Made by a program: the position numbers and the translations under genes. The notes under the pieces are model-generated. The model was not told where the DNA came from and did no database searches. It saw only the letters and a list, made by a program, of their open reading frames with translations. This document shows positions 14,534 through 15,745 of a stretch of 32,000 nucleotides of DNA, piece by piece (the first letter of the stretch is position 1; the number at the start of each line of letters is the position of its first letter). The stretch spans positions 1 through 32,000 of the forward strand of contig CAZYLT010000002.1 in NCBI GenBank assembly GCA_964648855.1, written 5' to 3'. The stretch is from an uncultured archaeon. Its GTDB lineage: Archaea; Asgardarchaeota; Thorarchaeia; Thorarchaeales; Thorarchaeaceae.

Positions 14534-15745
14534 ATGCCAAATAAGAAGATTGAGGACTACCAGGCCAAACGTTTCGAAGAAATGAAACAGGAGAAGAGGC
14601 TGCCCCCAAAGGTCTTGGATGAACTCATTGAAAAGGTCAGTAAAATTGACGATATATCAAAGAACGAGTTCGACGCTATCTGCACTACCGTCATAGAGTC
14701 ATATGAGAGGTCCCTAGTTGAGCCAGGCGAAGCAGTAGGAACAGTTGCTGCTCAGAGCATTGGTGAACCGGGCACTCAGATGACATTGCGCACATAACTA
14801 CATACATTTCGTATGTAGTGTGTTATTCACTATGCTGGGGTGGCTGAACTAAGCGTTACTCAGGGACTTCCACGACTGATTGAGATTGTGGATGCCCGGA
14901 ACAATCCGAGCACTCCAACTATGAAAATCCCTCTTGATTCAGAGATAGCAGGCGATCGGAAGGGAGCAAGAGACATTGCACGAAAAATCGAGATGGTACG
15001 GGTTGAGAGTGTTGCAAGCAATTTCTCTATAGACCTTATCCGACAAGCCATAGACATTCGACTAGATCCCGAACTTATGGAGGACAAGGGCCTGGAGGTC
15101 GAAGGCGTTGCGAAAGCAATCCAAGATAAAATCAAGGCCAAAGGTGAGGTAGAAGCAGGCGACAACGTAATCTATGTATATCCTGCAAGCGACACGCTTT
15201 CTGATTTACAGCGATTGAATGACAAAATCCGTGATATTAGAGTCAAGGGAATCGACGATGTTACTCATGTGGTCATCAGAAAAGAAGGCGATGAGTATGT
15301 TCTCTATACAGAGGGCTCCAATATCGAAGATGCCTTGGAGATAGAGGGAGTCGACCCTGACCGCGTTCATACAAACAATCTTCGTGAGATACACCAAATC
15401 TTGGGCATCGAGGCCACCCGCAATGCAATCATCAAAGAAGCTATGGACGTTCTCAATGAGCAAGGAATGGACGTCGATGTACGACATATCATTCTAGTAG
15501 CTGACATGATGACTGCTGATGGAACTATCCAGCAAATCGGTCGACATGGAATCTCTGGCTCGAAACACAGTGCTCTTGCCAGAGCAGCCTTCGAAGTTAC
15601 TGTCAATCATCTGCTAGGCGCAGGAATTACAGGTACGAAAGACCCTCTCAAGGGCATCACGGAAAATGTTATACTGGGGCAACTCATTCCTCTCGGAACA
15701 GGCTCAATAGACCTCCTAATGAACCCACACTCCAGCGGAAAGTGA
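14534..15745 (+). CDS. rpoA2: DNA-directed RNA polymerase subunit A'' (Rpo1C), join(14534..14795,14826..15745), 393 aa after intron removal
   Basis: Exon 1 ends QMTLRT; exon 2 reads (F)[24 protein letters not shown]...LGIEATR...[11 protein letters not shown]...[17 protein letters not shown]. Joined length 1182 nt, in frame. Confidence 0.93.
14796..14825 (+). other. 30-nt BHB-type intron in rpoA2 pre-mRNA
   Basis: AACTACATACATTTCGTATGTAGTGTGTTA. 9-bp stem ACTACATAC/GTATGTAGT, central helix GCAC/GTGT, bulges AT|A and TA|T. Unspliced frame has TAA and TAG. Confidence 0.85.

Follow-up and report, generated by a model that had tools for sequence, protein, structure and literature searches.

A predicted tRNA-type intron in the RNA polymerase trigger loop of a Thorarchaeon, at the edge of a candidate mobile insertion

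Contig CAZYLT010000002.1 (GenBank assembly GCA_964648855.1) belongs to an uncultured Asgard archaeon of the family Thorarchaeaceae, and its first 32,000 nt, the whole stretch analysed here and referred to as the window, carry the gene for RNA polymerase subunit A'' (rpoA2) with 30 nt inserted among its trigger-loop codons. This insert (14796–14825) is probably a relaxed tRNA-type intron, of the bulge-helix-loop (BHL) class, in the rpoA2 pre-mRNA, and it makes most sense as the spliced tail of a composite element that is new and putatively mobile. The predicted intron forms the terminal 30 nt, and hence the right-hand edge, of a 5,544-nt insertion (9282–14825), as judged against relatives in which the site is empty. 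The source genome is a metagenome-assembled genome (MAG) of 62 contigs, 94.6% complete and with 4.75% contamination; the exons, the intron and the parts of the insertion described below all lie on the + strand.

Both open-frame pieces of the gene match the Pfam domain RNA_pol_Rpb1_5 (Rpb1 domain 5), which identifies them as archaeal RNA polymerase subunit A''. The upstream frame (14534–14797) runs for 87 codons to ...GTQMTLRT and is closed by TAA, and the same frame resumes 30 bases on with HYAGVAELS... and stays open to 15745. At the trigger loop the sequence reads ...CGC ACA T, then the insert, then TT CAC TAT GCT GGG, exactly as an earlier reading of the window from its letters alone (the sequence-only reading) had quoted it; the frame is kept, and the insert creates an in-frame TAA at 14795–14797 and a TAG further inside. 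Exon 1 of the interrupted gene (14534–14795; Pfam), which is a replacement copy termed exon 1B here, ends with ...CGC ACA U, and exon 2 (14826–15745, stop codon included) begins with UU CAC UAU, encoding F-H-Y. Public gene callers give two pieces, the split annotation that the sequence-only reading had foreseen. The usual operon order is retained around the interrupted gene, with rpoB (2910–6344) and rpoA1 (6346–9003) upstream and L30e, NusA-KH and S12 following from 15798 (Pfam). The same reading had called this the only complete rpoA2, while allowing that an intact gene might lie elsewhere; the 94.6%-complete genome contains two 5' parts and one 3' part of rpoA2, and no second 3' part was found in it. 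The interrupted copy is also the only one in two genomes of another genus (G007 and G022).

The helix GCAC (14790–14793)/GUGU (14820–14823), the AUA bulge and the perfect 9-bp intron stem that had been proposed are all present, together with the loop AUUUC, in the minimum free energy (MFE) fold of the window allele. From its 5' end, the intron consists of an A, the two strands of the stem (14797–14805 and 14811–14819) around the loop (14806–14810), GUGU and UA. In the central helix, CAC (14791–14793) at the end of exon 1B pairs with GUG (14820–14822), to which the window allele adds the pair G14790–U14823. The three-base 5' bulge AUA (14794–14796), which is invariant in the alleles compared below, contains the predicted cut after 14795, and the 3' cut region UAU (14824–14826), with its predicted cut after 14825, lies in a loop closed by a distal exon–exon helix rather than in a tight 3-nt bulge. 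The outer helix had been described as imperfect, and indeed only 2 bp adjoin the 3' bulge. The hairpin occurs once in the 3.1-Mb genome, which rules out a dispersed repeat or miniature inverted-repeat transposable element (MITE) as its identity, and Rfam gave two tRNAs as its sole matches and none for the hairpin.

The central helix of tRNA introns includes the first two bases of the anticodon (Yoshihisa 2014, PMC4090602), so that a cut at 37/38 falls after the second base of the bulge. The tRNA-Asp intron of the window obeys this rule, with the helix CUGU/GCAG and cuts after CA and after AG. When the bulge-helix-bulge (BHB) rule, in which each strand is cut after the second bulge base across a 4-bp helix, is applied to rpoA2, exactly 30 nt are removed. 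Only one excision register, ACAU/.../UU(C/U)CAC, restores T-F-H, and it is the register predicted by the BHB rule, which bears out the earlier proposal that the cut rule of the tRNA introns yields T-F-H. On the 5' side, where the AUA bulge separates CAC from the 9-bp stem, a cut after 14795 alone restores these residues. The product spliced in silico is a protein of 393 aa that contains no stops and is colinear with and 93% identical to the protein of a same-genus relative (G001); its junction reads QMTLRTFHYAGV.

It is the comparison across alleles that sets the structure apart from chance. Of 86 genomes in the family, almost every one, that of G001 included, has an uninterrupted rpoA2 of ~400 aa, and G007 and G022 carry a 30-nt insert at the nucleotide identical to that of the window. 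Four further alleles were retrieved from JGI and Logan with a degenerate pattern that fixed the exon flanks only and with context look-ups for the giant open reading frame (ORF) described below, which brings to seven the alleles with a 30-nt insert at the same nucleotide, from independent NCBI, JGI, ENA and Logan assemblies. Their sources include JGI 3300031699 and 3300035158 and the runs SRR13394437 and SRR9700626. The sequence-only reading had proposed aligning related rpoA2 genes to look for covarying inserts, and in these seven alleles six of the nine stem pairs have changed on both sides, with 98.4% of cells paired. G.U pairs occupy four cells, in the sense-strand reading only, and none of the shuffled or slid-register controls came near the observed covariation values. 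Around this variable stem, the flanks CGCACAUAA and GUG are invariant, as is the loop with its closing pairs, ACAUUUCGU (14803–14811), which occupies the same columns throughout. The 4 bp between the cut sites consist of the three CAC/GUG Watson–Crick pairs, invariant in all alleles, and one non-standard pair, which is G.U in the window allele and G.A in each of the six others.

Two features of the loop were observed besides its conservation. The segment ACAUUUCGU repeats the spliced exon junction ACAUUUCA(C), a repetition that recognition by the tRNA splicing endonuclease (EndA) does not explain, and the loop AUUUC is complementary to GAAAU at the 3' cut site in six alleles and not in the window allele, which has GUUAU there. 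The hairpin may have another or an additional role.

The coding sequence on either side of the insert is constrained as well. The codons for F H Y A G V that follow the insert show synonymous variation only among the seven alleles, and no conserved start codon precedes them, so that translation must run into them from exon 1. The motif TFHYAG is itself invariant in 27 of 27 intron-less relatives. On the upstream side, the codons CGC-ACA are found in all seven intron-bearing alleles versus one of the 27 intron-less relatives, with neighbouring synonymous sites varying freely; as base pairing between exon and intron requires the Arg codon CGC, the exon appears to be constrained to pair. The close intron-less relative L061 (3640–3670) reads TTG CGC ACA TTT CAC and has the rare codon choice of the intron-bearing alleles, unlike the displaced exon 1 of the window itself (the stump, described below), which reads CTC AGG ACA. 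The codon choice of L061 could reflect a past loss of the intron with the flank retained, or a donor relationship.

The host encodes the enzymes that such an intron would need. Two EndA paralogues with both domains are encoded at C6:63923-64435 and C4:30948-31424 of the genome, and the catalytic one matches the A. pernix EndA alpha subunit (3P1Z_B) with E = 3e-49 and aligns Lys/Lys with K44/R46 of the Crenarchaea-specific loop. Enzymes with this loop can cut relaxed BHB and bulge-helix-loop substrates (PMC3241643), and Asgard EndAs have been reported to be (alpha-beta)2 enzymes with the L1 loop (PMC5829648). RtcB was also found in the host genome, at C12:38433-39743 (E = 2e-179), and by gene content the organism would therefore possess both a relaxed-motif endonuclease, EndA with the K/K loop, and an RNA ligase. 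ARAGORN called 26 of 42 tRNAs as intron-bearing, many of the introns being ~30 nt long. Its list also includes implausible introns in tRNA-Ser (722 nt), tRNA-Leu (2255 nt) and tRNA-Pyl (403 nt), which are probably false, or hide something else.

From these elements, we infer that the rpoA2 mRNA is cut and joined. In the proposed mechanism, the exon end CAC would pair with the intron GUG, placing the AUA bulge and the 9-bp intron hairpin on one side and the 3' site two bases past the helix on the other strand. The (alpha-beta)2 splicing endonuclease of the host would then cut after 14795 and after 14825, and RtcB would join the exons to give ACA-UUU-CAC (Thr-Phe-His), restoring the trigger loop.

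Several observations weigh against this interpretation. The strict hBHBh' motif is not formed; the outer helix adjoining the 3' site has two pairs, and the site itself lies in a ~10-nt loop closed by a distal exon–exon helix, an arrangement of the relaxed BHL/HBh' class. This exon–exon helix has 9 bp and in most alleles encloses the entire structure, with the 3' site in the loop; it is 92% paired in intron-bearing alleles and already 72% paired in intron-less ones, which indicates that it is largely intrinsic to the coding sequence and may be the reason why the site tolerates an intron. The G.A appositions at the fourth central position of six alleles are a further weakness, and in six alleles the MFE fold favours a small competing hairpin, GUGA-AAU-UCAC, over the central helix. 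For a single sequence the fold z-score is only -1.4, which alone proves little, and since the alleles are related, the covariation counts overstate the number of independent events. The invariance of the loop ACAUUUCGU is likewise not accounted for by EndA recognition. Finally, neither a spliced product nor an intron-less version of the window allele was found in the protein collection, which contains no long RpoA2 that is >79% identical to exon 1B. One protein with 100% identity to exon 2 (P0008) was rejected as the spliced product, as it belongs to an intron-less relative on a genomic contig and is no transcript. On balance, the geometry, the cut rule, the covariation and the host enzymes speak for the tRNA-type intron proposed by the sequence-only reading, with the amendment that its motif is a bulge-helix-loop instead of a full BHB, and we hold this identification with reasonable confidence.

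The insert had been read as a stand-alone intron, and here the interpretation changes. In three close relatives (L060, L061 and L062), rpoA1 is followed directly by an uninterrupted rpoA2 of 394 aa, with ACA TTT/TTC CAC at the trigger loop, and the DNA of the empty site reads ...CGCACATTTCACTATGC...; these empty sites define the inserted DNA of the window as 9282–14825, which comprises a left arm, a giant ORF, a spacer, the replacement exon 1 and the 30-nt intron at its end. Upstream of this DNA, 15 nt past rpoA1, lies a second exon 1 of rpoA2 (copy A, the stump; 9018–9284; Pfam RNA_pol_Rpb1_5), which reads ...AGG ACA T to 9281, is then closed by TAA and stops at the same codon as exon 1B. Its nucleotide identity is 88% to G001 and 94% to the empty-site relative L061, and in a tree it is sister to G001 with support of 100/100; these comparisons mark the stump as the native allele. 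In five independent stumps, the end falls no more than 1–2 nt from ACA-T. Two stumps carry an unrelated insert after ACA(T), one of 65 nt with a 7-bp GC hairpin (L056, 1363–1460) and one of 27 nt (G050, L043:3410-3470), each then followed by the first 7–8 nt of exon 2 (TTCACTA / TCCACTA); these might be what is left of an earlier insertion at this position. No comparable insert follows the stump in the window, G022 or L058, and a degenerate intron remnant after the stump was rejected, as none of the sequences there folds as a BHB.

Between the stump and the working gene, 5.2 kb contain a single ORF of 1418 aa (10050–14306), an orphan that is the signature gene of the element. Only five proteins out of 5.8 billion belong to its family, and no further one emerged when 1.84 billion representatives were searched exhaustively with HMMER. 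All five members stand directly upstream of a replacement exon 1, a 30-nt insert and exon 2, with variable cargo at the left of the locus and a native stump after rpoA1 in four of the five, where the contig reaches that far. Searches of Pfam (E up to 1), the PDB profile, PADLOC and viral contigs gave no match from which a domain or function could be assigned, the best value in the ESM Atlas (0.87) is below the useful range, and the AlphaFold model of the C-terminal 431 aa is unusable (predicted local distance difference test score, pLDDT, of 44). An AT-rich spacer (14307–14533) separates the ORF from exon 1B; a TATA-like heptamer, AATATAT (14478–14484), is the only promoter signal found ahead of exon 1B, which probably has its own promoter. 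A 46-nt block (85%) is common to G007 and G022 in the equivalent spacer. Over their last 40 codons, exon 1B and the stump differ at 25 synonymous and 2 non-synonymous positions, so that exon 1B has long been a working coding sequence. The tree of exon 1B (246 nt) is poorly resolved and its B alleles do not form one clade, and no donor is drawn from it.

The start of exon 2 also carries a trace of the arrival. Mismatches between exon 2 and L061 fall in successive 60-nt steps from 21.7% to 10%, 8.3% and 5%, and then to about 3%, and the first 110 nt differ from the rest with a Fisher p = 9e-6, the same trend being seen with G001. This graded, foreign (co-converted) tract (14826–14945; its boundary lies at roughly 60–180 nt) indicates that the incoming DNA recombined homologously inside exon 2. 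Co-conversion of the left flank is ambiguous, as the stump end differs from L061 and matches G001. The element is distributed sporadically, in four of the 86 family genomes and in three genera. G007 has kept the intron and a piece of the element's spacer and has lost both the stump and the giant ORF, which indicates that the intron-bearing gene persists without the latter.

Taken as a whole, the DNA at 9282–14825 is best explained as a mobile insertion that would have brought a replacement exon 1 with it and left the native exon 1 behind as a dead stump. The sequence-only reading had raised the possibility of a regulatory link between RNA polymerase and tRNA splicing; the analysis gave no support to this, and a selfish-element origin explains the presence of the insert better. 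The movement of the element would be homing-like, to judge from a precise site within an invariant motif (five stumps), empty alleles (L060–L062), the sporadic distribution and co-conversion at the right flank. No nuclease domain was detected in the giant ORF, the only constant gene of the element, by Pfam, the PDB profile, PADLOC, exhaustive HMMER or the Atlas. The window element has no integrase or recombinase domain that would place it in an integrase-driven class, its junctions show no att repeats or target-site duplication beyond ACAT, and no homology could be detected among the left arms of the elements in the window, G022 and G050. IS110-family transposases lie inside the G022 (L033:4081-5397) and G050 (L044:4250-5590) elements and look like secondary insertions. 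An IS605 OrfB/TnpB pair is located between rpoA2 and L30e in L058 (12098–13314), and a 493-aa protein with multiple helix-turn-helix motifs directly follows rpoA2 in G022.

A single scenario that would unite these features, and which we put forward only tentatively, is that of an undescribed selfish homing cassette of Asgard archaea. The orphan protein of ~1400 aa might be an enzyme that attacks the intact trigger-loop codons ACA-TTY-CAC, and its gene would travel with the replacement exon 1 and with a host-spliced mini-intron of 30 nt placed exactly in the target site. The mini-intron would disrupt the target, conferring immunity, and would make the insertion harmless by way of the tRNA-splicing pathway, and the element would spread by using the old stump of exon 1 and exon 2 as its homology arms. 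A part in target recognition might fall to the invariant loop ACAUUUCG, a copy of the spliced junction.

The alternatives to splicing are all considerably less probable than the relaxed intron. The hairpin could be a structure of the DNA only, such as an element end or recombination site, that stays in the RNA of an rpoA2 gene that is non-functional or transiently tolerated. Its position at the exact right edge of the insertion, the invariance of the loop and closing pairs while the stem covaries, as for a site recognised by a protein, and the presence of other end-replacing insertions in this genome are all compatible with such a role, which is nevertheless improbable: the essential A'' subunit has no gene other than the interrupted one in at least three genomes, purifying selection clearly acts on exon 1B and on the codons that follow the insert, the G.U pairs fit a sense-strand RNA, G007 retains the insert despite the loss of the giant ORF and stump, and the two in-frame stops would still need to be removed. 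A subunit that is truly split at the trigger loop, with 87 aa ending in ...QMTLRT assembling, unspliced, with a C-terminal piece begun at a downstream GUG or AUG, deserves still less credence. Naturally split RNA polymerase subunits do occur in archaea (A'/A'', B'/B''), and gene callers predict two ORFs; yet no conserved in-frame start precedes F-H-Y-A-G despite the synonymous-only variation in seven alleles, a polypeptide begun at 14840 would lack the catalytic His and the TFHYAG motif that is invariant in the 27 intron-less relatives, and the covariation of the stem would be left unexplained.

Ribosomal bypassing (hopping) of the 30 nt, or read-through of the stops, is very unlikely. A stop right after the take-off codon followed by a hairpin does resemble gene 60 of phage T4, but no codon matching ACA precedes the point of resumption, and an in-frame landing would give T-I-H instead of T-F-H. 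Read-through would have to pass an invariant UAA, as well as, in two of the seven alleles, another stop (UAG in the window, UGA in G007), and the trigger loop would gain 10 residues that are not conserved. The sequence-only reading had itself named an assembly artefact as an outcome that would overturn it, and an artefact of assembly or binning, or a decaying pseudogene whose real counterpart lies in the unassembled 5%, is a natural concern for a 62-contig MAG of this completeness and contamination. It is the least credible alternative of all, as the same architecture recurs with different stems in the independent NCBI, JGI, ENA and Logan assemblies, the gene sits within the native rpoB–rpoA1...L30e–NusA–S12 operon, and both exons are under purifying selection. 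The relaxed tRNA-type intron is thus the explanation retained here.

Other loci of the genomes compared were considered in the same light. A full rps12 gene is followed by three extra, diverged fragments of the rps12 3' end, the loci concerned lying at 16705–17148, 23528–23791 and 30232–30477 in the window and at G000:C2:34846-35043 beyond it; the fragments show 93–94% protein identity, and the cargo between them consists of a subtilase, SBBP beta-propeller proteins and an ABC transporter. In relatives, no more than about 1.3 kb separate S12 from the S7 gene after it, and in L056–L058 the two are directly adjacent. By this arrangement, insertions that replace one end of a conserved gene, rps12 as well as rpoA2, have entered this genome repeatedly. 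Two further candidates were rejected as interruptions. The 'split' rpoB of G007 (L034:12130-12145, minus strand) contains a single in-frame TAA and no insert, at a position where relatives have Ser (...LIGRT*PPRFLEE...), which may be a point mutation, a sequencing error or strain variation; the short rpoA1 of L060 reflects the choice of start codon only.

According to Yokobori 2009 (PMC2738675), cbf5 was the only archaeal gene with confirmed pre-mRNA splicing. The rpoA2 insert resembles the cbf5 intron of Crenarchaeota (Desulfurococcales and Sulfolobales; PMC2738675) in being a short BHB-type intron within an archaeal coding sequence, in its patchy phylogenetic distribution and in the mis-annotation of its gene by gene callers, and the removal of the cbf5 intron by the tRNA splicing endonuclease and a ligase is the same route as that proposed here. 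In contrast to cbf5, whose splicing has been experimentally confirmed, the splicing of rpoA2 is predicted here from sequence; the gene encodes the trigger loop of RNA polymerase A'', the phylum is Asgard (Thorarchaeota), the motif is relaxed (BHL), and the intron would form one end of a mobile insertion several kb long that brings a replacement exon. The insert is also similar to the non-canonical tRNA introns (HBh', hBH and BHL; PMC3241643, PMC5829648), with one well-formed bulge by a 4-bp helix and the other cut site in a loop. At ~30 nt and rich in hairpin, it resembles the host's own tRNA introns, and the host EndA has the loop lysine; unlike in the non-canonical tRNA introns, the molecule predicted to be cut is an mRNA, in which codons restrict the sequence of the exon strand of the helix. 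In full-text searches of the literature, no BHB intron was found described for rpoA2 or for coding genes of Thorarchaeota, and a 2026 preprint on Asgard tRNA introns makes no mention of mRNA introns.

With regard to its supposed mobility, the element can be compared with two other groups. Homing introns and inteins occupy the most conserved sites of essential genes, and IStrons combine a transposon with a self-splicing intron. Like these, the rpoA2 element is found at an invariant site of an essential gene, is sporadic, has empty alleles and shows co-conversion of a flanking exon, and its harm would be avoided through removal at the RNA or protein level. It differs from homing introns and IStrons in that the large ORF lies outside the spliced part, only 30 nt would be removed and a replacement exon restores the gene; it has no recognisable homing endonuclease or transposase domain, and its splicing would proceed via host enzymes and not through a ribozyme. 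Prophages and integrative elements may carry a replacement gene end, as phage 21 and e14 do in icd of E. coli and as is known from integration into tRNA genes. As in those cases, the target remains functional through a copy borne by the element, and a diverged stump is left at the other junction. Unlike in them, no integrase or att repeats were found, the 5' part of the gene is replaced instead of the 3' part, and the junction falls inside the reading frame, so that RNA splicing would be needed.

Provided that the insert is spliced, these Asgard archaea depend on the tRNA-splicing endonuclease and ligase to make the catalytic trigger loop of their sole RNA polymerase. A related cut-and-ligate route acts on the eukaryotic HAC1/XBP1 mRNA, in which ligation is carried out by a tRNA ligase. 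The splicing of HAC1/XBP1 has been termed tRNA-type unconventional splicing (PMC4090602). If true, the present finding would mean that the closest prokaryotic relatives of eukaryotes have an essential gene whose mRNA undergoes protein-dependent splicing. It would also describe how a mobile element can settle in an invariant part of an essential gene and leave its host alive. In practical terms, the annotation of rpoA2 as two fragments can distort marker-gene phylogenies and completeness estimates of Thorarchaeota.

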